Shown: positions 25,806 to 63,633 of the stretch, piece by piece
Layout of the letters: every line of letters starts with the position of its first letter
How positions within the stretch are numbered: the first letter of the stretch is position 1
IMG/VR virus record: IMGVR_UViG_3300029825_000001
Span: 69,558-133,557 of that record
DNA: 64,000 bases
Reading direction: 5' to 3' (one strand)
Source of the DNA: a virus
Program-made: the position numbers and the translations under genes
Notes under the pieces: model-generated
The model's database searches: none
Told to the model about the DNA's origin: nothing
The model's input: the letters and a program-made list of their open reading frames with translations, nothing else

Positions 25806-25858
25806 ATAAAGCATAGTTTAAAACAATAATTTTAAAGTATAACAGGAGGTTTTAAAAA

Positions 25859-28800
25859 ATGGATAATTACAGGAAAGCAATGGAAGAAAAACGAAACACA
25901 AGAGAAGCAAAAGCAGGAGATATTATAATAGCAAAAGGAATAACAGTAACAATAAAAGAGATTATGTATCAAGATTTTTATCCCTCAGATAGAAATGACG
26001 GATCGTGTGACTGGGATATAGAATTTAAAGATACAAACGGAAATTACAGACATTGGAAACAATATTTTGATGTTGGTAAAATTGAATTGAAATAATTTTA
26101 AATGCCGATAACAGGCAGGAAAGAAGGAATAAAAATATGTTTATGAGTTATGCGGATTATTTGGAGAAAACAAAAAAAGAGGATAACAGAAATTCATGGA
26201 TTGATTGGAAAACAGAAATTTGTGGAATGTCTTATACTGAAGCATATAAGGCAAGTTATGATCCAGACTGGGGATATGAAGAATAAACCATATAAATGTA
26301 ACATTTTATTACTATTTTAAGGAGGAAAGAAAATGATATTTATAGGAGACAGGATTAAATACAACCTAAAAACAGATAAGGTTATTGAAAGTATCAATCG
26401 CCCATCATTTATGACGGACAGAATAAGAGAAGAACTTAGAGTTAATAAAGACGGATACTATTATCTCCATACAGACAATGATAGAGAAAACGAGTTGATT
26501 TATACATCTGCTTTTGATATTAATGGATGGATGGAAATAAATAATGTATCAGTTAATTAAAAAAGAGGGCTGAATACCCTCTCTTTCGTAAAAATATGTT
26601 ATAGTCATTTTTTCAATCCACACAACGTTAAGTTGTGATAAAATAATTGTTGACGTTTTAAACAATGAAATTTTAAGTGTAGAAGACGTTAGTACAATTA
26701 GAAACGGCACAGCAAAAGTATTACAGTACATGAAGAGTAATGAGGTTGTACAAATATGATAAAAGATATGTACCATTATTATAATTTAAAAAGAGAGTGC
26801 AAAAAACTCTATTCCGAGATTATTTCACTAGATACCCAAAATATCAATAACAAGACTTTACAATGGGAACTCTATAACACAGAATCTAAAAAGGTTATTG
26901 ATAGAGTTACTGGAGAGTATAACAGCGTCAATATTTATGATGAGATATTTTGCATAGGTGATACAATTAAAATTCATTATATGGATATTAAGACGGCTAT
27001 AATTCAGAATATAAAAGTTGAATTAAATACTTGCACTTGGCATCCTGAGTATATCATAACAGCGAAAGACTTATTTTCCAATGATGTATATAGAATTACA
27101 TATAATACTTGTATTCACTTAACAGAACATTAACAGCACTTAAAACCTATATTTTATATATGAAAGGGAAATAAAATGGAAAGATGTATCTGTCCTAGAT
27201 GTAATGGAAGAGGTATAATTGAAAAATATAAACATGTCGAAAATGGTGTATGTTTTGAATGTTCTGGAAGTGGAACTGTAACACAAGAAGAATATACACG
27301 AATTCAAAAAGATATAGCAAAAGAGATTAAAAAACAGCAAAAGAAAAATCAAACAAAACAACAAAATTTGATTGATAGCCTAAAAAAAGAGTGGTTCAAT
27401 AATTCTGATATTATTTATGTATTAAATGAAAAAGATACATTCAGTATTAAAGATAAGTTAAAAAACGATGGAGCATTATGGAATAAAACATATCATGTAT
27501 GGTATTTTACAGAGTCTAAAAACAATTACAATTTGTTTTCTATATCATGGAATGAAGTTTTAAATGATAATAACAGAGGTTACGCAATAAATTTAACGAA
27601 CATAATAAAAGAACGTTCAAACGGAAATTTAAGGGGGTTTTAATATGAATAAAATAACGTTAAAAGACGTTGAAAATTTACAAAAGCATGACAGAATTAG
27701 TGTAACATATCTAAATAAAGATAATGAACCTATTACAAAGAACACTAGATTTTATGGAACGGAAAACAATTTTATAATTGTATATGCACCACGAAAACAA
27801 AAGAAAGGTTGGGAAATTCCCATAGGTACTGAATGTATCATTAAAAAAATATCTTAATATCATAGGAGGAAAACACCATGAACTTTAATGAACTAACACC
27901 ACAGGCACAAAATAAAGCCATACAGAACTATATAACAGAGTTCGCACCATATGAGGATATAGAGAACCCAAACGACATAACGGCAATTATTGAAGCTATA
28001 ACAATCAATAAAATATCGTTTGACGTTGACGGAAATATTATTAATTAGTCAATAACTTAACATAACAAAATAAAAAAGAATAGGAGAATATAACACCATG
28101 CAACCAGTTTTTATAACAGCACTATACATTTTAAGCATAACAGCCGTAATATTAACAACGGCAATCATAACAGCTAACTACATACAAAAGCAAATTTTAC
28201 ATAACAATTAAGAATGATAAATATAAAATTTATCGTTAAATTACATAAAACTGCTTGACATTACATATAATATACTATATAGTTAGTAGTATAAAAGATA
28301 GTTAATACATATTAAAAGGAAGGTGTAAAAATGAAAAAATTAACTTTCAAAAAGGTTGATACAATTACAGAAAACACAAGAAAAGCAACTATAAAAAATA
28401 ATGTAGTTGGATATAGAAAAGTTATAAAAAGTGATAACATTGTTATTTTTTATAGAGGCAACATAGGTATTGTTATTACAATATTACCTGATGATTTTAC
28501 TTTTGAAAAATTTAATTATTCACAAGAAGAATATTTAGAGTTTACTTATGATGATGTAAGAAAGTTTTTTGATTTTGAAAGTATTTAATGTACAATAGAA
28601 TAGAACAAATATTTTATTTGGTATTTATTACCATTTTGGAGGTGTAAAGCAAATGGAAAAAGAAAGTAAAATTATCACACATATTTCATATCGAAATGGA
28701 GATATTGTAACATTACCAATAAATGATATTAGCAAAGAAGATTTTGAAAAAGAAATAAAAATAGCAAAATCAAAGGGGCATATTGGATATTTTGAAACAG

Positions 28801-29225
28801 AACACACTGAAGACCAGAAATTTTTTATAAAAAAACTAGTTTATAAATCTATAGTATTTTGTAATATGTATAATGAAAATATGAAAAATGATATATTCAA
28901 ATTACGATGGGTAGGGCAAACTGAACCAGTATGGCATAATATATAGTGAGGTATAAAGCATGTATAAAGAATATCTATTAAATGTATGTGAAAATGGCAA
29001 AAATGAAGATGAACAACTTTATTTTTCAACTGAAGAAGGATTGAAAGCATGGGTAAAAGAAAATAAAAATAATTATAGGTTTGGTAAGGCTTATAAATTA
29101 AATGAAATCAATATAGATGATTGTTTTAATAGTGAGGTGTAATATGTCAGCACGAACCAAAAGCAAGCTGAAAAGCTATATTATAGACCTTGCAACGTTT
29201 AGTATATTATGTTGTATAGTTTCAT
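25859..29225 (+). CDS. Cluster of small hypothetical early genes (e.g. 25859-26095, 26333-26560, 26756-27133, 27176-27643 with Zn ribbon CPRC/CFEC, 27645-27857, 28331-28588, 28653-28946, 28960-29142)
   Basis: Co-oriented ORFs with GGAGG/GAGGT RBS; promoter TTGACA-17-TATAGT at 28255-28283. Confidence 0.65.
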
Positions 29226-29297
29226 ATTTTAGTATTACAATTTAAGAACAATAAATATAAATAAATAGTAAACATTTTTTTAACTTTCTATATATAA

Positions 29298-29328: not shown

Positions 29329-29702
29329 GTTGTCTTAATTTATGTATCAGCCGAACAACTTAAAAAATCCCAATACCGAATAAAATCGACCTTTTATTTT
29401 ACGTTTTAAGCGTGTTTTTAGTATATAGTAATATTAGTTTATGGTCAGTATATAAAAATGGCTTATATGCGAATTTTGTGACTTATAGTGTGTTTATATG
29501 ATTTTAACATTGGTTTATAATATATTTATTAGTAATTTTAAAAGATATGTATATTATTGCAGTAAGGGCATATAATAATATTATCAATAATAAATAAAAA
29601 AGTTTTTAATAAATTACTTAAATTATATTGACAATATAATAAAGGTATAGTAATATATAGGTAAGTTAAATAATAAATAAAAAAATATTACATATAGAAT
29701 TT

Positions 29703-33466: not shown

Positions 33467-33539
33467 TAATCTATACTATATTGTCAATCAGATTAACTGA
33501 ACTAAATAAAAAATATTTCGTAAAGTATGAATAATTATA

Positions 33540-33568
33540 TTGACAATATAGTATACTAATAGTATAAT
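33540..33568 (+). promoter_or_regulatory. sigma-A early promoter
   Basis: TTGACA-17-TATAAT; further near-consensus copies at 35043-35071, 36485-36513, 38134-38162, 42616-42645, 44434-44462, 51133-51161, 55044-55072. Confidence 0.85.
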
Positions 33569-34133
33569 AAAGATAGTTAAGAAAGTTAATTAAATGAACG
33601 GAATAAAAGGAATTTTGGAGGATTGAAAAATGAAAGCAGAAGCAAAGGAATTATATGTATTTACAAAAGACCATTTTGAAAATGATTTATCAAGAATCAG
33701 TAAAAGTTGTGTTGCTCCATTAATAGCAGTACGAAGAGTAGTTAAAAAGGCAATGACAAAATATATAGAAGATTATTGCAGTAAGGGTACACAATTTGAG
33801 GATGTATTTTCTGAAGAAGATTTCCAAGAAGTTAGTAAAAAGATTGTAGATGAATTGGAATAAATATCCTATAAAATCAGCAATTTATCCTATATATTAG
33901 CCTATAATGGCAGAAAGAATATGAGGTAATAACATGAATGATGAAGAGTTAAAAATCAGTAAAATTATGAATATGTTGGATGAAGCAGAACAGAAGAAAC
34001 AAACAGCAGAACAAGAAGATTATGGATATTATGCAGGGGAAGTTGATGCATTAAAGAATGTTTTAGATATATTACAAGGTTAAAAACAACCAATTAGAAC
34101 CAACATTTTAAACCTATAAAGGAGGTGTAACAA

Positions 34134-34676
34134 ATGGAATCTATAATTAAAATTGGTAAAAGTGAATTTTTAACAGATAGATTTATTGAGATAGTAAAGA
34201 ATAGTAAAGTTTATTCAGAGGTATGCGAAACTTTAGGACTTAACAAAACTACTCAAACAACTATCAATAATATTAAAAATGCTATAACAAATTTGAATCT
34301 TAACACATCACACTTTACTTACAAATATACTGTATCTGATAAAGTAGGTGGACAGAACGTAAAAGAATATAGCCTATCAGAGACTAATCAAAAGTATTAT
34401 GATGCTTTTCAAAACAATTTTGATAAATTAATCTCATGGCAACAATATAAAGTGCATTGTGGAGTATTTCTTGAATCACTCAAAGACAAAGATTTTGCAA
34501 CTATAACAATTGAAGATTTAGAAAACTATGTAAATAGCTTAACAGGAAGTCAGCAGACTATCAATAACAGCAAGGCACATATACGTTCTATGATGATTTA
34601 TGTAGTCAAGAATAATATAGCTGAAGCCTTTGAAAAGGTTAGCAAAGAAATGTTATTGTATTTAATTACTAAATAG
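34134..34676 (+). CDS. Stand-alone integrase SAM-like (core-binding) domain protein with N-terminal HTH
   Basis: C-terminal DFATITIEDLENYVNSL..SQQTINNSKAHIRSMMIY; no catalytic domain follows. Confidence 0.5.
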   Translation: MESIIKIGKSEFLTDRFIEIVKNSKVYSEVCETLGLNKTTQTTINNIKNAITNLNLNTSHFTYKYTVSDKVGGQNVKEYSLSETNQKYYDAFQNNFDKLISWQQYKVHCGVFLESLKDKDFATITIEDLENYVNSLTGSQQTINNSKAHIRSMMIYVVKNNIAEAFEKVSKEMLLYLITK

Positions 34677-35572
34677 GTATAATAGTAGTAATAGTATGAC
34701 AATAAACCTATAACAACCATAGGAGGTTACATGATGGAAGAGTATATTATTTTTTATGCAGATAAAAACCCAGATACAATAGAATATGATAATGACGAAA
34801 GGTTTTTATTTACAAATGAAACTGAAGCTATAAAGCAAGCTAATAAATGGCATAAAGAAGAAAAAGGTAAATATGCTTGTAATCAATATGTTGTGTATCT
34901 ATTTGTTGATAAGAAAAAAGTTAAAAAGGTTTATGAAACTGTATAATGAAATTGGTAAAATATACCAATTAAAATTGTAGATTTAATGGGTGTTTATATC
35001 CTATTTAATTGGAATAAATATAAAAATATATTGAAAATTATATTGACAGTATAGTTTCAAAATGCTATAATTAGATATACAAAGAGATACAAAAGTATGT
35101 TAAAATTATGTATTATAGAAAGAGGGTTATATAATGAAAATAGATGAAATGATAGAAAAATTACAACAAATGAGAAATGAATGTGGAAATATTGATGTGA
35201 TTGTTAGATGTGGATGTACCATATCCAGTAATTTAGAAATAGAAGATATCAACAATGAAAGCTATGGATATAATAGAATCAGTATTGTTGATAAGGATAG
35301 GGATTAATAGAAAGAAGGTATTAAGATGGGAGATTGTAATAATTCATTAATAGTAGACATTAATATGTTTAAGGATAGTATACCAAAAGATGCTGATAGG
35401 CTATTACATTTCTTTGATAAAAAGGAATATGAAAATGTTTTATATTATGCTGAAAGAATTTTAGAATTAACAAAAGATGCAATTGAACAACAAAAGATAC
35501 TGGATGAGAATATTAAATTTGAATGGTATGGTAATTAAAATATTGAATTGGTAGGAAAAGGAGTGATTTAAA

Positions 35573-36061: not shown

Positions 36062-36319
36062 ATCCGATAAATCGATTATTTGATGTATAGAAAGGAAGAT
36101 ATAAAATGACAACATTTGAACAATTGAAAGAAAATATCAAGGTATTAACCAATGAAGAAGCTAAAAAGCATATTAAAACATTATACGAATATAATCAAAT
36201 TACTTTTGATGAAGTGCTAAATATTGCAAAATTATTGTAATAGCCGTTAAAATGATTGATTTATATGTTTAAAAAGGTTATATCTTGATTTATGTATAAT
36301 ATAATGATATTATACATTT

Positions 36320-36451: not shown

Positions 36452-36797
36452 AACTACTACAAATAAAAAAGTTTCAAAAGTATATTGACAATATAATAAA
36501 TAAGTGTTATTATTAATATATCAAGTAAAGCAAATAAAAAATATGTGAGGTATTAAAAATGAGTAAACTAGAATTATTAAACAAAGAATTAATGAGATAT
36601 GGATTTATTAAAAAGCATTTTATTACAGATAGTAATAATGGCACGACAACAATAAGAGTAATTGAATATCAGAGTAAAACATATTGGCATCATATGTATA
36701 ATGGAAATATTGTAGAAATTACAGAATTGTAATAGGGATTGAAATAAATCACTATTCACTAAATAAAAAATATTACATATTTAAAGGAGAAGAAAAA

Positions 36798-37862: not shown

Positions 37863-38248
37863 TAATTAGACTAAATAAAAAATATATTATAGCTTTAGTA
37901 TAAAATTATATATTAAGGCTATAATATATAGATTAAAACGGTCAATTTATAGGTATAGGAGAAGTAAAATGCAAGATAATCATATAATACTAAAGGGAAT
38001 ATTAAATCGCATACAGGAGATAAAAACAACCAATAAACAAAGGTTTGATGATGAACTGGAAATATTGCAGAGTCAGTATAATCTATATGTGAATCTGATA
38101 TAAAAATAACTGTAATAAATATAAAAGTTTATATTGACAATATAATTTGAGCATGGTATAATTAGTTATAAGTTAAAGAGATACATAAAAACAAAATATT
38201 AAGTGGAATAAATATAAAATATTTTGTTTAAGAATTGGAGGGTTAAAG

Positions 38249-41200
38249 ATGAAACTTACAAGTGAAGATATTCAAAAAGTTGCTAATGGTATATCAAATT
38301 ATTTCTATAACAATAATTTAGAAGCTACAAAACAGTTAATGGATTTATTTGAAAGAATTACAAAGAAATTCTTAAATACTTGTGAAGATTATATTCAAAT
38401 GTATGATGATAATTTTTACACTTATCAAACATTTGACGAACTTGTTAAAAGTGAAGAAGAAATAAATGATGGATTAACAAGAGAAGAATGTATGGAACAA
38501 TTAAATAAAAGCATATGGCAGTTGCCATGTGGATGGTATGTTCAATATGTATAACAAATAAAAGTTCTGTTTTATAGGCTCACCTGAGCAGAAAGAAGGT
38601 AAAAAGATGAAAAATATTTATTTTGCAGTAACTATAAAAGAAGATGAAAAATATTACAGTTATGTTGTTAAAACAACAGAAAGTGACAATATTTTAAGTA
38701 AACTAAATATTAAAAATATTATATCTGCTAATATACTTCCTAAAAATGAAGCAAAAAGAACTGCCGAATATTGGAATGAATGTCATAAGAACAATGGTAC
38801 TTATATGTTTGCAGAGCCATTATTTTAAGGATAACAGAGTAGTTAAAACGAAAATTTCATGTTGAATTATAGAAAGGTAATGGTAGTTAAAATGAAAAGA
38901 TATAAAACTTATGAATGATTCCCAACGTACAAAGAGGTTTTAGAAACATATAACAATTTAGTAGATGAAATCAAAGGTATAACAACAATAGAACAGGCTT
39001 TAGAATATCAAAATAAACATGGTATTACTGTGGAAATTGACGGAGATGGTATTGATAATTATATTAAATCTGGTGGTGCTAATGAAGAAATTCAATGGAT
39101 TAGGTATGAAGAAATCAATCAGTTGGCATATGTATATTGTATGATAGGTGATAGAAAAGTAACTGATATTCGTTTTGATGTTTACTGTGAATGGAGTGAA
39201 GATGAATTTATTGATAATGTCAACGCTTTAACACAAGCAGAATATTATAACAAAATTGAAGAATATATCAAGTTCTTTAACAATCAAGATTTTAAGGTTA
39301 TTGGTGAAGAAGAAGAGCTTACAGATTTGAAGTTTGTAGTATAAGTAAAGCCGATGAAATGGAGATTTTAAGGGAGGAAATAAAAATGATAAAAGGTAGT
39401 TTTATTCAAGTTGTAAATGAAAAAGGTTATTATGATGTAGAAAGTCAAGAAGAAATAAAGGAATATCTTGAAGATATAAAAGACAAAACAGACACATATA
39501 TATTTAATGGTTTAGAAAAAGGTTATATAACCTATGACGAATTGCAAACATTACCAGATGATAATTATGTAGTGTTATATCAAGAAGATGATGGGAGCAT
39601 GACTTATTATCAAAGAGCAAATATAAATGTCAACAAAGAACAAATTGAAAAAATATTATCACAAAAGTTAACAAAAGATTGGGATACTAACGAAGATTTA
39701 ACTAAACAATGTGCTTATATCTATAGAATGTCAGATGGTGAAAAGATAGCTTAAAATTAATGATATAGTGAGGTGTAAAATATATGAAAAAAGTATATGT
39801 AGTTTGTGAATATGTTGAACATGGTAATGAAATTATTGGAATTTATGAAACAGAAGAAAAGGCAAACAAAGTTCATCAAGAACAACCAACATTTAGATAT
39901 GTAGAAAAACATTATGTTGAATAACATTACCAATAGAATTAACGATTTAATGGGGTAAATAAAAATATGGATAATGAAACTTTAAAAGATATTATAAGAA
40001 CAGCATTTAAAAAAGGTGAATTATGGGGAGTAACATATTCAACATGGTTTGAGCCAAATGAAGAACAAACAGAAGAACAAATTGAAAAAGCTATTGATGA
40101 AATATTAGATTAGGAGATAAAAATGCATATAAAAGATATTGGGTTTATAGTAGATAGTAACCCTACAACAGAAGTAAAATGTTCTTGTGGGTATATAACA
40201 CAACTAAAAGTAAAGTCATTAAAAGATATTGAATCTGAAATAGATTTTTTACAATGGCAGTTAAATGATATTCTTGAAAAACATAAAGAAGATAATATGT
40301 ATAACAAATGCATTATAACCTTAGAGGGTAAAATTGAAGCTTTAAAATGGGTAATAGGTTTATATGATGAACATTAGAATGTGAGGTAGCTATTTAATGG
40401 AAAAGGTTTATAAGCTTAAAGATAAAACAGGTAAAATATATAAATGTAAATTCAATCATATTTCGATAGTAATTGAATTTGCTAGGATAAGTAACTTAAA
40501 ATTCATCAATTAAAAGAAGTCTTTTATTTAGGTATAACAGGAAGGAAGATAAGAATGGATAAGAAGTATAGAAAAATTGAATTTATGATTGGTAGCACTA
40601 TTGAACAAGCAGTAAATGAACTGTTAAAGTATAAGGAACAAAGAATATTAGTAAGTGGTAGTTTTAATGGTCATATTCTATATTCAGACACAGTAAGTAT
40701 GGATAGTGCTTATTTAGAAATTATGGGAAAAACTAAATGTCAGTTTGAATCAGAACAAAAAGAGAGAAGAGAAAAACAAGAAAAAGCTGAACAAGAATTT
40801 AAAGAAGCTTTACCAAGATATATTGAAAATTGGAAAAATAAAGGTAGAAAAGTATTATCGGAAGATAAATGGGAATATTGGGATAAAATTGTACCTATTA
40901 GAGCAAATGATTTATATCATGGAATGGAACTGGATAACACATTGGATATTATATGTTCACTAAAAGAAAATAAATTAGAAGAAGCTAAGAATAAATTTGA
41001 TAAACAAGGACATTCTGGAATGTCTGCAAGTTTGGTATTTGGTATGATAAGAGAATTTTATGATGATGGTGATAAGTTTGTTGAGTATATGAAATAAGCA
41101 CTTAGATTCAGAGTTTAACGGTATAACAGAACTTATAACAGATTACATAGAAAGGTTAGGTATAACAGGATGAGAATATTAATGATTGGTATATTAATTA

Positions 41201-43645
41201 TATGGATTGGTTGGAATATATTATATACTACAGCGTTTATCAAATGTAAAAACCAGACATACGATTTAAAACTACAACAAAATTGTAAAAATGTACACAT
41301 ATTATGGTTTAAAATTAAAGGAAAAACAATTGGCGATATACTCTTTAGATACATATTAAATATATGGTTTACAATCATAGTATTATTTATTAAGTTAATG
41401 AAAATAAAAGTGAGTATATAAAATAAGTCTTCTAAAGGATATTGGAAAGGAGTAACAAGATGAAACAAATTAATAAAATAAATTATATACCAAATTTCTC
41501 AAATATAACCAGTGTGGCGAGAATGTTAAATTTAGAACTAAACGAAGTGTTTCAAATACAAATGTTTACACATAAAAACCCTTATAAATTGTGGTACAAA
41601 ATAACAGAGCAAGGATTATTGTATTCTAATACAATTAATGGCTTTTATAATCATTCTGATGCTTTAGAAGGCATAATCTTAGGAAAACACCAAATAATTA
41701 AAATAGCTTAAAATCAATGTTTTAAAGGTTGGAAAGGAAGATATGAAATGACAAATGAACAACAAGAAATAAAGAAAGCATGGCTTCAGATTATGGCTAT
41801 CTTAGATGAAACTGGTTATAGCTTTATGTATATGGATGAAATTTCTAAAATTGCAAATGTGGTAAGAAAAGAAATTGGTTTGGATTAGTTGATGAGTTTA
41901 AAGATAAGGAGAATAAAAATAATGAGAGATTATATACATATGATTATGACACAACTAGCTAGTATTTTATTTAATGCAACTCAAAGAGCAAGCAATGTAA
42001 CTAAAGATGAAATACTGGATAGTATAAAACGAATGTTGGTTGATTACAACGCAATAGTCAAGGGTAGTGGTAACGAGGTTCAAATTAAAGATTTTAGAGA
42101 ACAAAATTAGCCATTAAATTCGGTATTCTATGGCACAAAAGGAAGTGATATAAATGAAACTAATAGACCAAATGGAAACAATAAAACTAATGGAAAGATA
42201 TAATAATACACCACGAAGAATTATTAAAGAGAATCTGCTCTATATAATCAAGAATAAAGAAAAATATGAAACTAAAGATATTACTCAGATGTTAGATATT
42301 ACACAGGTAAAAGTTCTAAGTTGGTTTAATATGTCAAGTCAAAATATACCTACTTTCTATGATGCATTAAGACTAGCAACAAAATGTGGTGTAGATATAG
42401 AAGAGTTTATAAATACGGAACGATTTGGTTATTTTAAGAGTTTTAAATATCCAATAGAGCAAAGTGTTAAAATAGCAGAATATGATTATTTTAAGGAGAG
42501 TGAAGCAATATGGCAGTAGTATTTTTCGGATTTTTATTTATAGTAGCAAAGTGCATTGAAGGTTAATTTTATTGAACTAAATAAAAAAGTTTTTAGAAAA
42601 TGTTACTAATTATTATTGACAGATAAAGGGGATTGGGATTATAATAAGGGTAAGTTAAAAGGGTAAAAAGAATAGGATATAGAAACCTTATTTTAAGGTG
42701 AATTTAGGAGTAAAAAATGAATTACGAAAATGAAATGATGAATTTAATACTTGAACATAAAAAACTAAAAGAGAACGAAGAGGAATTAAGAGACTTTTTA
42801 AACGACCTTAAAAATAATGCAGAAGAAACTAGCTTAGAATATGTAATTACAAGACTAGATATTATACTAAACAACCGTTAAAAACAAGATTTTATAGGAG
42901 GAAAACAAGATGAATGAAGAAGATGGAGAAGTTATTTTTGATTTAAACAATTATGTTTCTTGTACTAAAGAAGAATACGAAAAAGAAGTAAGTGAATATC
43001 TCAAGAAATCCATAGAAAAAGATAAAGAGTTTTGGGATACTCATAATGGATATAGCGATATGTCTATTCATTTAAATAAATCATTAGAAGAAGTCATGCA
43101 GTTAATCGAATTTAATATATGTTTAACTCTTCAAGGTCATGTTGAAAAGAAAATCAAATCATATAGAATTGGCAAAACATTTACATTAACTGATTTATTA
43201 AAATTAGCAGATGATAATTTTTATGAACAAATAAATGTATTATTAAGAAATAATAATTTCTTAGAAAATAATAGCAAAATTAAATATGAAATAATACAAT
43301 TAACATGGAGAGCAATAGGTATGGCAATTAAGAATAATAGACATTTATTAGCAGAAGTCAATGACTCAACATTTAAAAGAATTGCTAGTAAAAATGTTAA
43401 GAGGATTTAAATGCTCTAAGGAGTGGAAAGTGAGTATTAAGATGGATTATTTAGTAACTGGATATGGTCGTGGAATGTCCAGAAGCGGAATTGAATTTTG
43501 TAAGGTTAAAGCAAAATCTGAAGAAGATGCATTATCAAAAATTTATAAATCAATATGGTATGATTATCATGCAACAGAATTTAATCAATTAAAGTATGAT
43601 GAATTAAGAGATGATATTCATAATAGAGAAATTGTAAGCAATTAA
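38249..43645 (+). CDS. Cluster of small hypothetical early genes (38249-38554, 38607-38828, 39359-39754, 40123-40377, 40555-41097, 41170-41421, 41442-41711, 42154-42519 HTH-like, 42910-43410 DUF1413-like)
   Basis: Co-oriented ORFs with RBS, many delimited by the 16-bp palindrome. Confidence 0.6.
38892..39344 (+). pseudogene. ORF interrupted by in-frame TGA at codon 9
   Basis: RBS plus ATG 38892, MKRYKTYE*FPTYKEVLE... in frame with ORF 39030-39344. Confidence 0.55.
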
Positions 43646-43677
43646 AATGAGAATTCTAAAGGGAGTGATGTATAATT

Positions 43678-43938: not shown

Positions 43939-44495
43939 ATTGGTGTTTAAATCAGACATTTTAATCGGTTTTAGAGATTTTAAAACGTTGAAATTTCAAT
44001 AGTTTAGAAAGGAGAAATTATGCAAAAAAGTGATTTTAAGAAAGAACAAATAGTATTTCTTAAATACATAGGAGATAGAAGACATGGTACAATTGGAGAT
44101 ATAAAAGAAGCTATTGTAAAAAGTGTTGGAAGTAAGTATATCACAGTTACTTTAGGTCGATGGGAAGAATACAAGTTTATTATTGATGAAGATTTTAGAC
44201 AATATTATGATATTGGTGGTCAAGATTATGAATTATATTTAACTAGACAACAGATTGAAGATGAAAATGAAGCATTAGAAATTACTGATTTCATTATAAA
44301 ATATATGCCACAGGGGTATGGCAGACATTGTGCTAAATTACCATTAGATAAGTTAAGACGTATTAAAGCAATTATAGAAGAATAAATACATTTAATATGT
44401 GTAAAAACTTTGTACAAAATTTTGATATAAGTATTGACATAAATTTTCCAATATGATATATTAATAATATCAAATAAGAAAGGAAAATAAAAAAT

Positions 44496-45925: not shown

Positions 45926-46497
45926 AAATAGATTATATGATTTATTATGAATGGGTTTATAAAACCCAATAGAAGATAAGTTTTATTTTGATTACACATC
46001 AATTAAAATAAATATAAAATCTTAAAACAGCAAAACAAAAAGGAGATATATAAGATGAACAGGAATTGGAATAATATTAAGATAGTACCTAAAGATAGTC
46101 ATTTAGAAGTTTTTAATGCAGATAATAAGTTCTTATTCTCAGCAGACAACATGGAAGAAGTTTATACTGAAGTTAACAGTCATATATTGCACTAAATAAA
46201 AAATATCAAACGTCTTAAAACAATATAAAATGGTTAGATAGTAAAAATAAATTATATTTTGCTTAGATAACCAAATAAAAACTCACATGAAAATTATAAT
46301 TATATGTCTAAATATGTCGAAAAATATCATAAAATACCATAAATATATAGTTAACAGTCATATCCCCTTATTGACTTTTTGCTATATGAGGTCTAATATA
46401 TTAATATAAATAAAAAATATTTTAGATATATGGTCGGAATTATCTGAAAATATTTTCCCCTAGACAATATGCACAAAAAGGTGTATATTAGTTTTTA

Positions 46498-47859: not shown

Positions 47860-49191
47860 ATGATTAAAAAAAGAAGTGAACTCGAAGCGATAATAGACAA
47901 AATTATTAAAGTTAACAATACAAAGCAAGACATTGTTAAACCATTAAAAAAGAGTTTATTGGAACATAATATTAGTATTGGTGAGTTTCAAAGTATTTGG
48001 AATAAAAATAAAACACTAGATTCTATTGATGACTCTACATTATTTTTACTTACTAAATATTTATATGAATTAACACTTGAAGAAAATATAAAACCTGAGA
48101 CTTATTTTACTGAAACTGAAATAAGTGATGGTAATAATTATAAAAGGGAAATTGTCAGTGATATGATAGAATTACCTATTACTTTTGATGAAGTTATAAA
48201 AGTAACAGATAACCAATATATCACTACTTTAAGTATTCAAAAAATTAAGCAGTTACAAGATAGTAAATTAATTAGTTATAATTTTGATGCACAAAGAAAT
48301 CCTAAGTATAAAATAGATAACGAAGGTGAATTAATCAAGGTTGCTAATATTAAACCACAAGCTGTTAAAGAAATTTCTGATGATATGGTATCTGGAAAAT
48401 TTATCCCTAACACTATTACTTTAAACATATTACAGAATGGTGAGGAAGATTTTGTATTTGATGCAAAAGCACATGAATTAACTATAACACGTGGTATGAT
48501 TAATATTATTGATGGATTCCATCGTGAAATGGGGTTAATTGATGCTATCGGACAAAATGAAAGTTTAGACTTCCCTATGGAAATACGTATAACAAATTGG
48601 GATATACAGAAATGCCGTAATTTTATTCGTCAAGAATCTATTAGGAATAAAATTGATACAAAATATTTGTCATCTGTTATTAATGTAGATAAATGGGGTA
48701 ATAAAGTAGTTAATAAACTTAACGAAGGGCAATGTGATTTAAAAGGTAAGATTACCACTGATGTGGTTGTAATAAGAAAAAATAAAGCGTATACTATGTT
48801 TGATTTAATGTCTGATACAATTGATTTATTATGGGATATCAAAACCAATATGGATGTTAATAATTTGGCAAAATATTTAACAGAGTTCTTTGATTATATA
48901 GTAGGATATAAAGTTGAAGATTTTATTGAATCTTTATCAGAATCAAAAGAAAAAAGCGTTGTGACTTATCCAGCTATGTTTATTGGATATTTAGCAATTG
49001 CACATAAATTAGAAAAAGATAAAAATTGGCAAGATAAGTTAAGAGAATTTTTAGATAATACTGATTTTAGTTTAACTAATCCAATTTGGAAAGAACTTGA
49101 TATTATTGACAACAATTCATCTTTAGTTTTAAATATTAGAAAGTCAGGAAAGAAACATATTGTAAATTATTTTGTTACATTAGTTAAGTAG
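47860..49191 (+). CDS. DndB/ParB-like DGQHR-domain protein (SPbeta YopQ/SroE-like)
   Basis: FIPNTITLN and IIDGFHR motifs; directly upstream of MrpR-like gene as in SPbeta. Confidence 0.75.
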   Translation: MIKKRSELEAIIDKIIKVNNTKQDIVKPLKKSLLEHNISIGEFQSIWNKNKTLDSIDDSTLFLLTKYLYELTLEENIKPETYFTETEISDGNNYKREIVSDMIELPITFDEVIKVTDNQYITTLSIQKIKQLQDSKLISYNFDAQRNPKYKIDNEGELIKVANIKPQAVKEISDDMVSGKFIPNTITLNILQNGEEDFVFDAKAHELTITRGMINIIDGFHREMGLIDAIGQNESLDFPMEIRITNWDIQKCRNFIRQESIRNKIDTKYLSSVINVDKWGNKVVNKLNEGQCDLKGKITTDVVVIRKNKAYTMFDLMSDTIDLLWDIKTNMDVNNLAKYLTEFFDYIVGYKVEDFIESLSESKEKSVVTYPAMFIGYLAIAHKLEKDKNWQDKLREFLDNTDFSLTNPIWKELDIIDNNSSLVLNIRKSGKKHIVNYFVTLVK

Positions 49192-49205: not shown

Positions 49206-50207
49206 ATGTACAATGCAGAACTTAAAAACAGATTTTTAGAACAATATAGTAATGTTAAAACAAGAAAAACATATAGTGATAGTTTGAGCCAAATTAATGA
49301 TATGGAAGAACTATATGATAAAGACGTATTTCTTTTTACTTATGAGGAATTACATGAAGCTTTGAATGGAATTAGAACAAAGACATCTTCTGGAGCAGGA
49401 AGAATTATATCGCCTATTATGAAATATATAGATTTTGCAAATGAAGAAGGTTATGTTCCATCAAAAATAACTTACACAAAGTTGTTTAAAGGGAAAAAAC
49501 TAGAAGAATATATTTCATCTTACGCTTTAAATAATAGTTATATTGTAAGAGATGAATTATATGATATTTGCTCATATCTAACAAATGATATGGATAAATC
49601 AATTTTAGTAATGGCTTTTGAAGGAATTGATGGTAGGGAACATTTTGAAATGAGAAATTTGAAAAAACAAGATATTAATTTTAGTACAGGAGAAGTAGAA
49701 GTAACTAATATTGATGGAGAGATTAGGAAAATTACCATTGAGGATAAAAGAAGTTTAGATATACTTGAAGATACTATAAAAGAAACTGAATATAAGTTCA
49801 GTAATGGAGCAGAACTATTAAGAGCAAAAGATGATATTTTAGAAAATACTCCTTATTTATTAAGAAGAGTAGAAAGCAAACTTTCAAATACAGAAATAGA
49901 AGATGAACGAGTAACATCAAATTTCTTATCTTGCAAGGTTACAGTATTCTTTAAAGGTAAAAAAGTAAAAAAGAATATAATTGCTGACCCTCCGTATGTG
50001 CCAAATTATCAATTTCTCAACATAACTAATGTTTTTAAAAGTGGATTCTTTGATTATTGTACACAATTAGAACAGAAAAAAGGAATTAAATTAGAAACAA
50101 AAGATTATAAAACGGCATGTGAAAGATACGGCATTAATCCTAATAATATTCCTTCTTATAAAAAACAATATCTTGATTGGAAAGAAAGAATCAATCGAAA
50201 GGGGTAG
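49206..50207 (+). CDS. mrpR: MrpR/YopR-like repressor (degenerate tyrosine recombinase fold)
   Basis: MYNAELKNRFLEQ...EELYDKDVFLFTYEEL...KYIDFA; LVMAFEGIDG replacing the catalytic Arg region. Confidence 0.75.
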   Translation: MYNAELKNRFLEQYSNVKTRKTYSDSLSQINDMEELYDKDVFLFTYEELHEALNGIRTKTSSGAGRIISPIMKYIDFANEEGYVPSKITYTKLFKGKKLEEYISSYALNNSYIVRDELYDICSYLTNDMDKSILVMAFEGIDGREHFEMRNLKKQDINFSTGEVEVTNIDGEIRKITIEDKRSLDILEDTIKETEYKFSNGAELLRAKDDILENTPYLLRRVESKLSNTEIEDERVTSNFLSCKVTVFFKGKKVKKNIIADPPYVPNYQFLNITNVFKSGFFDYCTQLEQKKGIKLETKDYKTACERYGINPNNIPSYKKQYLDWKERINRKG

Positions 50208-50633: not shown

Positions 50634-50653
50634 ATAATAGGGGGAATATATAA

Positions 50654-51067
50654 ATGAATTTTGGTGAAAAACTTGGTTATCAATTATTGAAAAATGGATA
50701 TAACTACTCTACAGAATTTGCTCCAAAGGTAGATTTGAGTGAAAAAACAATTAATCAATATAAAAGAAAAGAAACAGCAGACGGAATAGACGTAATGAGG
50801 CTAATGAAAATAGCTAATGCATTAGGTATATCATTGGATTATCTTATAGGAAATGATGATGAAAATGAAGAAATACAAATTGATGATTATAAATATATTA
50901 ATGCAAATAACATTGAAAGTATACAAATTGAAGATTTAGTTAATGAGATGAAAGCAATAATTAAAGATAAAGAATGTATTTTTAAGAATAAAGAAATTAA
51001 TGACGAGAAAAAATATCTTATTGATAGTTTAGATATAGGATTTAAATTAATAAAGCAGAACACCTAA
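50654..51067 (+). CDS. XRE HTH regulator
   Basis: FAPKVDLSEKTINQYKR....LMKIANALGISLDYLIG. Confidence 0.8.
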   Translation: MNFGEKLGYQLLKNGYNYSTEFAPKVDLSEKTINQYKRKETADGIDVMRLMKIANALGISLDYLIGNDDENEEIQIDDYKYINANNIESIQIEDLVNEMKAIIKDKECIFKNKEINDEKKYLIDSLDIGFKLIKQNT

Positions 51068-51421
51068 TCTGCTTTATTTTTTTATCATTTTCAAAATTAA
51101 TTGTGATAAATAAAAAAGTTTTAAAAAATATATTGACAAGGTAGGACGTGAGTGATATTATGATAAGTAGAAGAATTAAAAGATGACTATTTGTTAGCAA
51201 TAAAGGAATAAAAATTAATGTAGATGTTAATGGAAGTTATCAAATTATGGAAAAAGTATTCCCAAACGTCTTTGACAATGGGATAGAGGATTTAGGGTTA
51301 AATCTAATTAGAATAGATTTATAGAAATATCAATCGACTAACAAACATAGCTTATTAAAATTAATAAATAATATTAAAAATTTTAATAATTATGATAACC
51401 TGATGGTAAATTAAAGTAAAT

Positions 51422-51700
51422 GTGAACTACCCACGACTAAAGTCACGGGTTTCAAGGAGCTAAGTTCACCAGACTAAGTATAGAGAAATCTATACTACGA
51501 TAATTTAGTTATGATACCTTTGGTTAACGCATCAGACCATTGCTCTATCGTATATATTTAAGTAGAACTGAGGTAAGGTTCGGTGATATATACATGTAAG
51601 CTATTTTATCATTGTCGAGATGATGACGGATTCTTATTATGGTAATAGTAATAAGATACGCATAACCTACTTTTTAGTAGAGTATTTTCAGAAAGGAACT
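51422..51700 (+). ncRNA. omegaRNA (HEARO) scaffold of IscB
   Basis: GTGAAC...GTTCACCAGACT opening stem, CTACGATA, ATTGTCGAGA segments typical of omegaRNA; directly 5' of iscB. Confidence 0.8.
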
Positions 51701-51705
51701 GAATT

Positions 51706-52965: not shown

Positions 52966-53044
52966 TAAGTTAAATCGTCAATTCATCTCATGACTAAAGT
53001 CACGAGTGTTCTTGACAAGATTATATAAAAGAAAGGATAATAAA

Positions 53045-55015: not shown

Positions 55016-55815
55016 ATTAACTGCAATAAATATAAAATAAATATTGACATAAGGCTTGGTTGGTTGTACTATAGAAATATAAGGAAGATAATCAAGCCTT
55101 TAAATGTTATATTTTAATTGGTGGAAAGGAATAAATATTATGGGAATGGATTATTCATATTCAGGTTCTTCTTCTTACCCAAGATTTGATAGAGAGATAA
55201 AATCATTAGTTGAATTATTTGGGGGAAGAGAAACAAAAGAATTAGAAAAAAGAAAAGAAACAGAGAATGAAAGACCTTGTGGATATTGGTTTGGTTATAT
55301 GAGTTCAGCAGAACCAAATATGCAGAAGTATGTTTTTCCGAAAGAAACAAACGAAATATTAGTGAAATGGTTTAATAATATATATAATACTTTTACAGAA
55401 GAAGAAACAGTAATAGTTTTTACTGAAATAAAAAAACATAAAGCAAAAGTATTGGAAATATCAAGCCAAATTTATAATGAATTAGAGACATTATGTGAAT
55501 GTAATGAAGGATGGTATATTTATTGAAAAAATTGAAGAATACCAATTCAAAGACCATTTTATAAGTAGGAGGTGAGGTTTTGGAAATTGTTAAAGATAAT
55601 AGACCAACAATAAATACTGAATGTTGGAGTTGTAAATCTATTTTAAAAATTAATAAAGAGGATATAACCGTAGATTACAAAAAAGGATATGCAATATATA
55701 ATTATTATTGTCCATTATGTAGGAGCTTGAACGGCATTACTGCATTACAATATGCTGAATTAAATAAATATATATAAGCATAAATAAAAAAGTTACATAC
55801 AGAAAAGAGGATGAC

Positions 55816-56957: not shown

Positions 56958-58559
56958 CATAGAATACAAGTTTTATTTGGTGAAAGGAGAAAAAATGAAA
57001 ATTGAAAATGAAACAAAAAATATAGAAGTTACAAAAGAAATAATAAAAGCTGTATATAGTGAAATAGATATTAAAAATTTAATTCTTGCAGACTTAAAAT
57101 CACAAGGCTATAACGTACAAGCTATATTGTTTAAAACAAATTACAAATATGTATCTGATGAATGGGGAATGAATTGCCATTCTGTAACTGAATTTTGTGG
57201 AGCTGAAGTCTTATTAGATAAAAATAATACCATTTAAAATTTATGTTTTATATAGGAAGGAGTAAATAAAAAATATGAACAATAAACAAGAATTACTACA
57301 TAGAGCTATTCAACATTATAAAACTATGGTGATAGCAGATATAAACATAGATGATGATTTAGCTAAGTATAGAAGAGTTGCTTTAGAAGCACTTAAATCA
57401 GAATTAGAACGAGAAGAATCTGATGGTTGTGAGTATTGTAATACTGAAAATAAATTTACAGAAACAGGTGTATCAATTATTTCTAAACCATATTTACAAG
57501 TTTATATTGCAAAACAACCTATAGATAATAGATATTACTTAACGACAAGTGAATATGAAGAATTGAAGAGTAGAAAAGGACAATATGATAACAGTCCTTT
57601 TAGAAGTGATAAGAGAGAAATATATTATTGCCCTAAATGTGGAAGAAAGTTGTGATAAATAACAAATAGTACACCATATATAGTGATAAAATTGTTATTA
57701 TATACAAAATATAGAGTGAAAACTACTATAAATTCATCGTTTTAACGGTAGAAAGGTAAAGTAAATGAACGAAATAAAATATACATATGGATGTGAGAAT
57801 AAAAAATATCATGTAGAATATTATCCCAATCAGTTAGAAAGGCAAGAACAATATGGAATGACTCTTAAGGTTAATGGTATTGTTAAACATTTTGACCCAT
57901 CATGCCAAATAGCAATTCAAACTGCTAAATGTGATTTTATATTAATTGATAGTCGTTTAATTGCAGTAATGCGACCAATGAATGAGTTTGAAATAAAGGA
58001 TTTTGAGAAATTAGAGGTAAAAAATGAGTAATATAAAATATTATTGTTTGTATTCACAATGTCCATTAACAGACTGTGAAAAACATTTAAAACAACCATT
58101 TGATAAAACTGGTGAATATATTAATTTAAAAGATTATGCTCCAATATGTGAAAGATATATTGGGTGGTTAGTAGATAAGGAAAGGGGAAAATAAATATGG
58201 ATATTAAAATTAATGATACAGAAATAGAAAAGTTAGTAAAAGCTCAAGTAAATCAAAAAATTACTGAAAAAGTAAATAGTGTTTTTAAGAGTTGTTATAG
58301 CAATAAAGACTATATTGAATATAAAATTAGAGAAATTGTTGAAGAAAAGATTAATGGTATATTAGAAGAAAATTTAGACGGAATGATATATGAAGTAATT
58401 CAAAAATGTGATAAGAAACAAATAGCAAACAATATAAAAACAGAATTTGTAGAAGGATTACTTGATAAATTAACAGAAAGAGAATGGTAAATAAAAGGTG
58501 AGTTTTAATTGGTGTTATATGTAATAAATATAAAATAAGGAAAGGAATAGTTATAGATA

Positions 58560-60966: not shown

Positions 60967-61045
60967 TTGCACTTTAATACAATAAAGTGAACGCTGGAAT
61001 TTCAACGTTTTAAAAATACAAAAACCGATTAAAATTGCACTTTTA

Positions 61046-63571
61046 ATGGTGTGGAAAGAAGAATTAAGAATGAAGATAAAATTATTAACTCGTGACACTA
61101 TTAGCAATATAATGGAATTTGTAACATACATAAATAAGAGCAATAATATGACAGCATTAGCCCAAGAACAATCTGAAGATGGGTATTATGTTATCTGTGT
61201 AGAATCATTTGAAGAAGGAGAGCAATAATGGCTAGAAAATCAAAAGAAGAAAAAGTACATGAAAACAAATCACAAGAACAAATTAAGTTAAAAGATGCTT
61301 TAATTGAATCAAAATTATCTCCTGAAGATATAGTATATATACATAAACACAATGTATACGGAGATGAAAAATACTTGGTTAAGGATATTGAAAATAATAT
61401 ACTAAATAAAAAAGTAATGGGAATAAATCAACACTATAACAGTGAATTACGTGCATCTGACGGATTTAGATTTATGATTGAATAGGAGAAATAAAAAATA
61501 TGATAGAAAATACTTGGGATAATGGGTTTGATTTTGAAAATATGTCAAAAGAAGAATTAATTGATGCAATAACACATCATTGTCCATATCAAAAATGTAT
61601 TAAAGAAATTGAAGGATATAATTTTATTGTAGGAAGATATTACTATTATGAACAAACATGTGAAGATGAAGTTGGTTTTTGTTGTAAGAACATATGTTAT
61701 TTAAGCTTTGATGAAGCAAGAGAACATTTTGTTTAGAGAGGATAAAAATATGAATAGCAAAGAAATATATGAAAATTTATATAATTTAGTCACTCATGTA
61801 GATACAATTAGTAAAGCTAATTTGAAATATGCTAAAGAACTTCAGATAGTCTTATACAACCTAGAAATAGAATCTGCTCATATTAATGAAGCTAATGGGT
61901 TGTTAGCTATTGCAGAAGAATTAAGTCGCATACTCAATAACATCATTAAGCATACAGATGAGTTAATTAAAGAAGATGATGAAGTTATTGAAGGCACTAT
62001 GAGCGAATTAAAGGGTGTTTTGAATATATAGAAAGGAGAAATTATGAGTAAACAATATACGTGGGAATCTGAATTAAATAAGGAAATGTGGCAACATGAT
62101 TGTTTTAATTCACCAACAGATTGTATTTTAGATGCAGTTGAAAATTATGGATATAAATCAGGTGAAACAATTTATATTGGTGTAACTGTAGATTTTGGAA
62201 TTAATGTTGATGCAACTGATGTATTAGAGAAATTAGAGGAAGAAGCATATGAATTTGCAGAATCAGCAGAAGATTGGAACACATTTAATTATAAAGAAGA
62301 TAAAAAAGAATTAGATGAATTAAGTGAACAATTGAGTGATGTGATTATTAAATGGTTAGAAAAGCATAATAACATGCCTAATTTTTATCAGGTTATTGAT
62401 GTTCAACCATTTAAAATTTGAATTTTAAGGTGAAATAGATGAAAGAAGATATTAATAATCCATATTTTAATTTGAAACATTATGAGTTTAATGATTTGGA
62501 AGACTTGATAAATTCATATAAATCATTTGATGGATTACATAAAGCTAAATTAAATTGGTTAGATAGATTAATTTCAAAAGAGCATAAATATGGATATAAC
62601 CGAATGTGTGTATTTGGACTATGGTTAATGTGTGGAGCATTTCTTCCATTCTGGATATTATTTATGTTTTTAATAGGTAATTACACTAATAATAGTAATG
62701 CTATTGGAGGAATAAGTTTCGTAATTTGTTTTATTATAGGAATTGTATTTGAACTGATTTATCAACATAGTTGTGACAAGATAGATTACAATTCATTAAT
62801 GGATAAAGTTGCTCAGATTAATATATTTGAGTGGTTAGAAAGAAATTAAAATGAGACATTTAATGGGGTGAAATATGAATATAAATAATGAAATACCTAA
62901 ATATAGAAAAAAATCTAAATCTACTAATAAGGCTAAATCAGACCATAAACATGAATATACAGACTGTTTATTGTTTGATGGTAAGTCACATTGGAAAGGT
63001 ACTTACTGTAAAATTTGTGGCAAGATTGGTGATAGAAAATGGGAGACTGAACCAATAGAACTACATGGTAAAATGTTCCATAGATTATTACATAATGAAG
63101 AATTAGTACTAAAATACAAAGATTTAAATGTATTTAATATTAATAGTGATGGTAAATATATTGAAAAATAGGTATAAAATGTACGTTTTAATGTACGAAA
63201 AGGAGATAGGAATGAAAATAACAAGAAATAAAATTACACCAGTTATAAACCCAAACTATCAAGTTAAAGAAGCTCCACAAGAGTTAATTAAAATATTAAT
63301 AAACAGTGGCACAATACCTGTAGTTACTACCAGTTTAGATAAATTATGTGATGATAACATATCATTTAGTGTTAATGAGGATGATGTTATAGGTTACGTG
63401 ACATTTAGTTGTTATGAGCCAACATTAGAAGATAACGGATTTATTTACGCTGATATTTCATGGTGTAAAGATGACTACAAAGACTATCAATGGGCAAATT
63501 GTGAGTTCGAAGTAGATTGTAATATGAATATCACTAGATTTATATGTGTACAATATGAAATGGTGGATTAA
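61046..63571 (+). CDS. Cluster of small hypothetical genes (61046-61228, 61228-61485, 61500-61736, 61708-62031, 62044-62421, 62439-62849 membrane, 62875-63171, about 63212-63571)
   Basis: Co-oriented ORFs with RBS; last three each bracketed by the 16-bp palindrome. Confidence 0.65.
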
Positions 63572-63633
63572 AACAGAGATTTTATATGTAATAAATAAAA
63601 AAATAATTAGAAAGAGAGGGCAAAATATATTAT

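Follow-up and report, generated by a model that had tools for sequence, protein, structure and literature searches.

A 16-bp palindrome repeated at early-gene boundaries is a conserved signature of SPbeta-like phages carrying the yopQ-mrpR module

Here we describe a short palindrome, TAAAA-N6-TTTTA in its strict form, that recurs at the boundaries of early genes in a window of 64,000 nucleotides (bases 69558-133557) of the 135,434-bp IMG/VR phage record IMGVR_UViG_3300029825_000001. Judged by its YonO, YopQ and MrpR homologues, the phage is SPbeta-like. The palindrome is one form of a 16-bp two-fold-symmetric word, T-R-A-A-A-N6-T-T-T-Y-A (here mostly TAAAA-N6-TTTTA), and this word is a conserved signature of SPbeta-like phages carrying the yopQ-mrpR lysogeny module. 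On balance, the sites at the boundaries of early genes are most likely operator-like docking points for a paired phage protein that binds duplex DNA, and their most likely role is to silence or insulate genes in the lysogen. The lysis-lysogeny switch of SPbeta, a model temperate phage, is being actively studied (arbitrium, MrpR, SPBRE), and SPbeta shares with many uncultured relatives this strictly conserved early-gene-boundary palindrome, which is far more abundant than SPBRE. A description of the palindrome was not found in the literature searched, which excluded the SPbeta genome paper of Lazarevic et al. 1999.

The strict word occurs 17 times in the window, compared with 2.57 +/- 1.67 expected copies and a maximum of 7 in any shuffle. 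Expected counts were taken from dinucleotide-preserving shuffles, with 300 shuffles for the whole-genome division into coding and intergenic DNA, which relies on a crude gene call made for this analysis. The original prediction, drawn from the sequence of the window, had given 14 strict copies against 2-3 expected; the enrichment was confirmed, but the count was too low. The looser form TARAW-N6-WTYTA is likewise enriched (43 in the window vs 19.7 +/- 4.5 expected); about 30 copies of TARAW-N6-WTTTA had been claimed in the right arm. Across the whole genome, 37 strict copies compare with 6 for the reversed control. The enrichment is intergenic: 23 strict copies are wholly intergenic genome-wide, where 0.94 are expected and the largest of the 300 shuffles reached 6, and so are 46 loose copies (6.7 expected). 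Coding DNA holds 7 strict copies genome-wide where 4.0 are expected, and 22 loose copies where 28.3 are expected; there is therefore no coding excess. In total, the genome has about 58 intergenic copies, and the window has 32-35.

The geometry of the word is strict. A spacer of 6 bp accounts for the 37 copies genome-wide and is the sole enriched spacer, with the other spacers of 0-14 bp giving 1-14 copies each. In an unbiased scan for dyads in intergenic DNA, TAAA-N8-TTTA ranked first (49 vs 10.1) when ribosome-binding sites and A-tracts were excluded. The gene-boundary copies in the window comprise 14 strict, 18 one-mismatch and 3 two-mismatch sites. As predicted, the central 6 bp differ in every copy, with no spacer shared among these 35 boundary sites. 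The flanks show a weaker symmetric consensus, about ACC-n-A-W ... W-W-K-G-n-T in this phage, which is symmetric within a lineage and differs between lineages (approximately ACC-n-A-W here and T-Y-T-R-R-A in SPbeta). What had been described as an extended inverted repeat of 24-28 bp is instead this symmetric flank consensus, without site-by-site pairing.

Next, we looked at the position of the sites relative to genes. In compact gaps, the site begins 0-10 nt past the stop codon, with the TAA of the site often being the stop codon itself; lying just behind or overlapping the stops of early genes, the sites therefore end 20-25 nt ahead of the next start. In gaps of at least 117 nt, pooled over eight genomes, 29 of the 75 strict sites lie no more than 15 nt past the upstream stop (8.2 under the null, largest 17), and no enrichment is seen beside starts (14 vs 15.3). 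The strict copy predicted in the late arm at 9444 is indeed present, 7 nt past a stop codon. The claim that every copy found lies at a gene boundary needs correction, as three strict copies fall inside open reading frame (ORF) calls (34157, 49223 and 21881). A site is found in just about 30% of same-strand gene junctions (52/178), and thus the genes are not all partitioned singly into cassettes, as had been proposed. The sites of the window are as follows.

9444..9459, strict site in the late arm, 7 nt past a stop codon
14270..14285, two-mismatch site adjoining the YonO-like gene
21881..21896, strict site 134 nt past the YopP-like gene, within a doubtful ORF call
25819..25834, strict site, 25 nt ahead of a start codon
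26293..26308, one-mismatch site
27141..27156, strict site, 8 nt past a stop and 20 nt ahead of a start
28601..28616, one-mismatch site with a TAGAA arm
29381..29396, strict site within a long gene-free gap
33872..33887, one-mismatch site, 9 nt past a stop
34095..34110, one-mismatch site, 24 nt ahead of a start
34157..34172, strict copy within the first codons of ORF 34134-34676
34970..34985, one-mismatch site, 24 nt past a stop, upstream of the promoter at 35043
36248..36263, one-mismatch site within a long gap
37934..37949, one-mismatch site
38559..38574, strict site, 5 nt past a stop
38844..38859, one-mismatch site with a TTTCA arm
39355..39370, one-mismatch site with a TGAAA arm, at a gene edge
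39934..39949, two-mismatch site, 10 nt past a stop
40511..40526, strict site, 29 nt ahead of a start
41419..41434, one-mismatch site, its TAA the stop codon of the upstream gene
41709..41724, strict site, its TAA the stop codon of the upstream gene
42115..42130, two-mismatch site, 5 nt past a stop
42680..42695, one-mismatch site downstream of the sigma-A promoter at 42616
42879..42894, strict site, its TAA the stop codon of the upstream gene
43643..43658, one-mismatch site, its TAA the stop codon of the upstream gene
43948..43963, one-mismatch site, 10 nt past a stop, followed by a terminator-like palindrome at 43984
45970..45985, one-mismatch site, 45 nt past the stop of the TnpB-like gene, the last site ahead of a 9-kb site-free gap
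49223..49238, strict copy within the first codons of the MrpR-like gene, probably a coding coincidence
55101..55116, one-mismatch site downstream of the promoter at 55044, the first site past the 9-kb gap
56960..56975, one-mismatch site, 3 nt past a stop
57235..57250, strict site, its TAA the stop codon of the upstream gene
57729..57744, one-mismatch site, 21 nt ahead of a start
58492..58507, strict site, 2 nt past a stop
61030..61045, strict site, 20 nt past a terminator-like palindrome at 60990
62412..62427, strict site at a gene edge, 12 nt ahead of a start
62847..62862, one-mismatch site, its TAA the stop codon of the upstream gene
63175..63190, strict site, 4 nt past a stop
63569..63584, strict site, its TAA the stop codon of the upstream gene

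Site positions are given in window coordinates throughout unless marked as genome positions. The palindromes lie mostly outside promoters; where a gap also holds a sigma-A promoter, the site can be upstream or downstream of it, and some sites in SPbeta are located between an annotated terminator and the next promoter (e.g. at 76171 and 99498 in SPbeta coordinates). A promoter function of the sites was rejected, as the sites contain nothing that matches a -10-like hexamer and are distinct from the canonical sigma-A promoters (TTGACA-N17-TATAAT preceded by a TAAATAAAAAA tract). Similarly, promoters or terminators of the YonO RNA polymerase were rejected: YonO is present in all motif-free relatives, and the region of the SPbeta YonO start site (PMC5467207) is free of sites. 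The yopQ-mrpR module itself lies in a site-free span in nine of nine genomes; this span measures 4.7-14.4 kb, compared with 0.85-1.5 kb for the median distance between sites, and extends in the window from 45985 to 55100.

The word is found across the SPbeta family. SPbeta (NC_001884) has 34 strict copies, compared with 0-3 at other spacers, and TAAA-N8-TTTA is the top intergenic palindromic dyad in SPbeta, in the genome described here and in six IMG/VR relatives, G002, G008, G015, G016, G032 and G041. About 20 uncultured relatives carry the word, and those from IMG/VR contain 16-64 strict copies vs 0-4 for the reversed control. The relaxed form T-R-AAA-N6-TTT-Y-A reaches 62 copies in G014 (5.5 at other spacers), 39 in G017 (3.2) and 45 in G003 (4.8). 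In these three genomes (loci L181-L204), position 2/15 is degenerate, with TGAAA/TTTCA beside TAAAA/TTTTA and all four half-site combinations present. This degeneracy represents a natural specificity variant, useful for tracing the reader protein via coupled changes.

Phages that bear YonO and lack yopQ-mrpR, including those of 40-45% G+C, do not show the motif. This includes G001, the nearest YonO relative (30.5% G+C, YonO 73% identical), in which neither the motif nor a substitute motif was detected. Host chromosomes are not enriched either: over the whole genome, three hosts have about as many copies as the control and two have fewer. On a Virgibacillus contig, 28 sites fall in a prophage stretch of ~126 kb, compared with 17 in the remaining ~1.07 Mb. 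The density in the prophage is thus ~14 times that of the rest of the contig, marking the 16-bp palindrome as replicon-specific.

In addition, we asked whether the sites behave as folded strands or as duplex DNA. Their mean fold energy of -2.7 kcal/mol is the same as that obtained when right flanks are exchanged between sites (-2.85 +/- 0.25), and about one in seven (8/57) does not fold at all. At mirror positions in flanks and spacer, pairing in four genomes is no commoner than independence predicts. Among the one-mismatch variants of six genomes (190 exact intergenic sites), 28 keep a G.U pair on the sense RNA and 30 are mirror-image changes that break it. In G014, the half-sites vary independently, with A/G at position 2 and T/C at position 15, and therefore A.C combinations (TAAAA...TTTCA), which clash if folded, are common. 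Altogether, weak folding, lack of covariation, symmetric mismatches and independent half-sites led us to reject an RNA or DNA hairpin, and they fit a symmetric protein dimer on duplex DNA. Flanks that are symmetric and differ by lineage are likewise the signature of such a dimer on double-stranded DNA with drifted outer contacts. In integron attC-type sites pairing is conserved and not sequence, whereas here the sequence is conserved and the pairing is not. A relationship to repetitive extragenic palindromes and their associated transposases (REP/RAYT) is likewise not seen, given the lack of both a pairing signal and host-chromosome enrichment; the sole transposon-type gene among the scanned ORFs is the TnpB-like 44720-45925.

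Which protein might read these sites? Three genes of the window are important in this context.

47860..49191, + strand, YopQ-like protein of 443 amino acids with DndB/ParB fold (Pfam DndB), leading candidate for the binder
49206..50207, + strand, MrpR/YopR-like repressor derived from a tyrosine recombinase (Pfam MrpR_N_CB and MrpR_C_cat), within the site-free gap
20674..21747, + strand, YopP-like protein of the tyrosine recombinase family with HxxK replacing HxxR, the recombinase candidate of the original prediction

Comparing the gene content of eight motif-bearing and six motif-free genomes, YopQ-like and MrpR-like genes were both present in 8/8 of the former and 0/6 of the latter; a third perfect co-occurrer, YomM-like, is one only when this phage's own copy is used as query. 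Across 42 records, 23 have a YopQ-like gene, of which 18 carry at least 16 strict sites and three more the relaxed form. Among the 19 records without a YopQ-like gene, the motif was found in only one, a 39%-complete fragment. The DGxHR motif is invariant in 10 homologues of the YopQ-like protein. Its predicted model has a mean predicted local distance difference test (pLDDT) score of 81.8, and its central domain (residues 115-264) aligns to the N-domains of ParB (Z 8.6, root-mean-square deviation 2.9 A, 99 residues), Noc (Z 8.1) and KorB (Z 7.2), over about 95-100 residues. A ParB_N_Srx domain of YopQ has been noted before (PMC8612738), and DndB is known to bind TACG-N10-CGTA palindromes (PMC4507180). 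Transcripts of yopQ are made by the dormant SPbeta prophage, and deletion of the gene leads to translucent, apparently lysing colonies (bioRxiv 10.1101/2021.11.22.469490). In SPbeta lysogens, yopQ and the repressor gene are co-transcribed. On these grounds, the YopQ-like protein ranks first as the presumed binder.

The best explanation for these observations is probably the following. Each copy is most likely a docking site for a symmetric dimer of a phage-encoded DNA-binding protein, presumably the YopQ-like ParB/DndB-fold protein (47860-49191). With sites placed immediately behind or overlapping the stops of early lytic-cycle genes and missing from the lysogeny module itself, bound sites might dampen or block transcription across early-gene boundaries, as with mycobacteriophage stoperators or the KorB operators of RK2. 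That homology between related phages often ends exactly at the site edge would then be a by-product, not the purpose. The second reading of the original prediction, recognition sites for a phage protein, is the best supported, but the binders named there are not.

Several points weigh against this explanation. The co-occurrence is confounded by descent, and the motif phages may be one clade sharing yopQ-mrpR for other reasons. G005 has both YopQ-like and MrpR-like genes and only a weak motif (19 vs 9.5). The fold match is limited to the ParB N-domain and of middling strength, and among the proteins of related fold are nucleases and NTPases, which do not recognize palindromes. A helix-turn-helix for reading DNA was not identified in the YopQ-like protein, and the C-terminal helical half of the model has no clear match. 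Although YopQ homologues share only 24-30% identity, the core word does not change, which would be unusual if binder and word had co-evolved; the real binder could be a small helix-turn-helix protein that has diverged too far to be picked up by searches. The proposed silencing role is drawn from analogy and from the site-free lysogeny module, and the span around yopQ-mrpR is not exceptional in SPbeta (5.98 kb vs a 90th-percentile gap of 10.5 kb). The tight anchoring at stop codons is without obvious reason under a pure operator model.

Going further, YopQ-type ParB/DndB-fold proteins could represent a new class of phage silencers or insulators, an idea that we regard as tentative and rather doubtful. 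Made in the lysogen beside the master repressor, they would load at the 30-60 copies of T-R-AAA-N6-TTT-Y-A at the ends of lytic early genes and keep the early region quiet or marked, in a manner similar to KorB or Noc. If true, SPbeta would have another cis-regulatory network, as yet undescribed and much larger than the first, and a function could be assigned to its conserved core gene yopQ.

Alternatively, the word might be kept as a short homology for recombination between co-infecting relatives, i.e. as a linker for modular exchange comparable to the PeSL elements, which we consider unlikely. The phage encodes a RecJ-like protein, SPbeta has a Sak4-like annealing protein and a RecJ-like exonuclease according to its record, and PeSL-mediated shuffling is documented (PMC2839356, PMC4122927). 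To examine junctions, we compared phage pairs among SPbeta/G041 and G016/G015/G008. Between these related Bacillus-type phages, 10-19% of homology block ends lie no more than 15 bp from a site, compared with ~1.3% at random. Within site-bearing gaps, the ends pile up at the outer motif edges (6/13, 6/20, 7/25 and 8/23 vs 1-2 expected), with the whole motif and its spacer remaining with one homology block. The uncontrolled test for junction enrichment gave odds ratios of 1.7-3.75, largely because the sites live in plastic small-gene regions; when only these regions are considered, junctions are not significantly commoner in site-bearing gaps (pooled odds ratio 1.48, p = 0.15). Such a pile-up at the edges is to be expected if a conserved functional word is all that otherwise unrelated neighbors have in common. 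Moreover, a linker of only 10 fixed bases with weak flanks is far shorter than the promoter-plus-terminator PeSLs, and only weak selection on evolvability would be available to maintain 30-60 exact copies. Both the fixed spacing of 6 bp and the symmetry of the half-sites suggest recognition by a protein rather than mere homology.

A further suggestion of the original prediction, that the sites are operators of the MrpR-like repressor, is also quite unlikely. The motif is accompanied by MrpR-like genes just as closely as by YopQ-like ones, and MrpR is a recombinase-derived DNA binder with dispersed sites (PMC10516654). However, all ten peaks obtained for MrpR in SPbeta by chromatin affinity purification sequencing (ChAP-seq) are at SPBRE, and the 34 strict palindromes that SPbeta carries are not reported as peaks (PMC10516654). 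The SPBRE that we derived from the ten published target promoters, about CAAATACAAAwAATATGTATAtAAT, is a different word and is embedded in sigma-A promoters, spanning the spacer between -35 and -10. On this evidence the MrpR-operator reading was rejected. In the window, an exact 15-bp palindrome, TATATTGACAATATA, is centered on the -35 hexamer of five strong sigma-A promoters, with 16 matches at no more than two mismatches vs 2.8 expected. As a candidate operator of the MrpR-like or an XRE-type repressor, and hence as an analogue of SPBRE, it is preferable to the TAAAA palindrome. Its copies are located as follows.

24575-24589, 29624-29638, 33536-33550, 36481-36495 and 38130-38144, exact copies of TATATTGACAATATA
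35039 and 51129, near copies
17643, near copy on the - strand

The sigma-A promoters of the window show a further repeated feature. An oriented tract, (G)TAATAAATAAAAAA(T), is found about 15-25 nt upstream of most TTGACA promoters (e.g. 24555-24570, 29600-29615 and 36460-36475), and the 11-mer TAAATAAAAAA that had been recorded earlier is the UP-element-like part of a repeated promoter cassette of ~60 bp.

A third alternative, which we consider very unlikely, is an RNA-level hairpin in polycistronic early transcripts, acting as a processing site, 3' stabilizer, weak terminator or in translational coupling. The sites start at or just past stop codons, the usual place of 3'-end hairpins, and just ahead of the next ribosome-binding site, and some copies have stems of 9-11 bp (e.g. 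-9.7 kcal/mol at genome position 20819). However, the low mean fold energy with 8 of 57 sites unfolded, the lack of covariation, non-wobble mismatches as frequent as wobble-compatible ones and the common A.C combinations in G014 argue against it, and little RNA is expected at the SPbeta sites between a terminator and the next promoter.

The first reading of the original prediction was tyrosine-recombinase sites at which genes move in an integron-like manner, via the YopP-like protein (20674-21747); cuts would fall at the edges of the 6-bp spacer, and a catalytically intact YomM-like protein could be considered as the enzyme as well. This we regard as highly improbable. The 11-6-11 layout resembles XerCD/dif-type core sites, with invariant 5-bp arms and symmetric flanks around exactly 6 bp, a geometry shared by many dimeric regulators. 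CRP-type TGTGA-N6-TCACA sites and the 16-bp palindromes of ParB-type proteins have the same 5-N6-5 geometry, which is therefore not diagnostic of recombinases. Three proteins of the tyrosine recombinase family are encoded in the genome, of which the YomM-like one (genome 60631-61647, - strand; L008:3631-4647), located in the late arm outside the window, retains R, HxxR, H and Y; in SPbeta YomM and in the two YopP proteins, HxxK is found where the second arginine would be. The accumulation of homology ends near sites and at their edges would also fit. On the other hand, the spacers all differ, while most tyrosine recombinases need identical overlaps. The YopP-like protein has HxxK and a Pfam catalytic-domain score below the cut-off, and G002, with its 43 strict sites, lacks a homologue of it. 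The YomM-like protein does not track the motif, being absent from G017 and no more than marginal in G015, G016 and G002. Most mosaic junctions between relatives lie far from any site, and in small-gene regions site-bearing gaps show no significant excess of them; sites are present at both ends in only 3 of 46 variable segments (G016 vs G015). Furthermore, 30-60 active sites per genome would invite frequent deletions. Cassette excision and insertion by the YopP-like protein was therefore not supported. As a general caution, arms around a 6-bp spacer do not by themselves indicate recombinase sites; tests of pairing, spacer identity and junction enrichment are needed.

For the phage of the window itself, close relatives suitable for direct breakpoint analysis were not found; a phosphoadenosine phosphosulfate (PAPS) reductase query of IMG/VR returned no match, and no GenBank phage shares DNA with the window. 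Excised or rearranged forms did not turn up in read data, where no run was listed for a 10-kb stretch and two metagenome runs with small shares were listed for one gene; their contigs were short, less than 90% alike and for the most part homologues of the HNH gene (51.4-53 kb), with all joints having sides of 21-28 nt. Nowhere else in the window are there many divergent look-alikes of the kind that this RRXRR-HNH endonuclease gene (51400-53000) has in groundwater and sludge metagenomes (80-90% alike, short pieces), which fits a widely mobile homing-type gene.

Least probable of all is a conserved host protein borrowed by the phage: the core is identical in phages of very different hosts (Bacillus, Virgibacillus and a host with about 27% G+C), but host chromosomes are unenriched outside the prophage, on which ground this reading was rejected, and sites are lacking in G001, whose base composition is similar and whose YonO is 73% identical.

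Further features of the phage accompany these sites. The YonO RNA polymerase homologue (14316-16889) shares 48% identity with SPbeta YonO, and DnaE-like, DnaB-like and RecJ-like replication genes as well as a YomG-like tail gene are found elsewhere in the 135-kb genome. Genes at genome 1-36.5 kb and 90-135 kb (early, replication) are on the + strand and those between (late) on the - strand. In species-representative genomes, the nearest YonO homologues are 56% and 45% identical (L212, L239), on contigs binned to a Treponema metagenome-assembled genome (MAG; 'uncultured Treponema sp.') and a Gastranaerophilales MAG; these are probably mis-binned phage contigs. A second palindrome family of the approximate form AACGTTGRAATTYCAACGTT is present at 43984-44003, 60990-61009, 22502-22521 and 22830-22849 (4 matches vs 0.02 expected), and GTTG-N6-CAAC occurs 6 times genome-wide vs 0.1 expected. 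Two copies of the AACGTTGRAATTYCAACGTT family are terminator-like and lie beside TAAAA sites, and two are in the gene-poor control region at 22-23 kb. Downstream of the TnpB (IS605 OrfB) gene at 44720-45925, palindrome copies begin at 45929 and 45970, i.e. 4 and 45 nt past its stop, and TnpA was not seen alongside.

Finally, we compared the palindrome with known systems. PeSLs of T4-type phages are likewise repeated intergenic elements in plastic early regions where homology often ends (PMC2839356, PMC4122927). However, they are promoter-plus-terminator cassettes with demonstrated activity and detected mini-circles, whereas the palindrome is 16 bp long and neither promoter nor terminator; sigma-A promoters and terminator-like palindromes are elements separate from it. 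XerCD/dif and integron attC sites resemble it in having inverted arms around a 6-bp center, and attC likewise follows the stop codon of the cassette gene. Here, in contrast, there is no folded-strand signal, the spacers differ, an integron-type integrase is lacking and 20674 is without the second catalytic arginine. The DndB operator TACG-N10-CGTA is also a spaced palindrome starting with TA and ending with TA and read by a DndB-family protein, but consists of two 18-bp sites at one promoter of the DNA-phosphorothioation operon (PMC4507180), and yopQ has no dnd genes next to it in this phage.

Among known systems, KorB/OB, Noc/NBS, the L5 stoperators and SPBRE/MrpR come closest. SPBRE and MrpR belong to the same phage family and also form a pair of a repeated cis element and a lysogeny-module protein that reads it, the reader being a candidate in our case; SPBRE differs in its sequence, its ten copies and its position within sigma-A promoters, whereas SPbeta carries the strict palindrome 34 times, not embedded in promoters. 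The stoperators of mycobacteriophage L5 and other Cluster A phages are reportedly dozens of short repressor sites in short gaps, thought to stop read-through in the lysogen. The palindrome shares with them its many copies confined to short intergenic gaps of a temperate phage. Stoperators, however, are asymmetric 13-mers of fixed orientation bound by the immunity repressor, while the palindrome is symmetric and differs from the site of the master repressor. KorB/OB of RK2, ParB-parS and Noc-NBS all involve palindromes of 13-16 bp in many dispersed copies, as seen here, with a ParB-fold protein, encoded by the mobile element or by the host, as the known reader. KorB represses transcription from dispersed OB operators on RK2, which number about a dozen; the phage has 30-60 sites, placed at stop codons. 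The encoded YopQ-like protein shares the ParB N-terminal fold at a middling Z, but is of the DndB/DGQHR type and not a canonical ParB, and it is a candidate reader.

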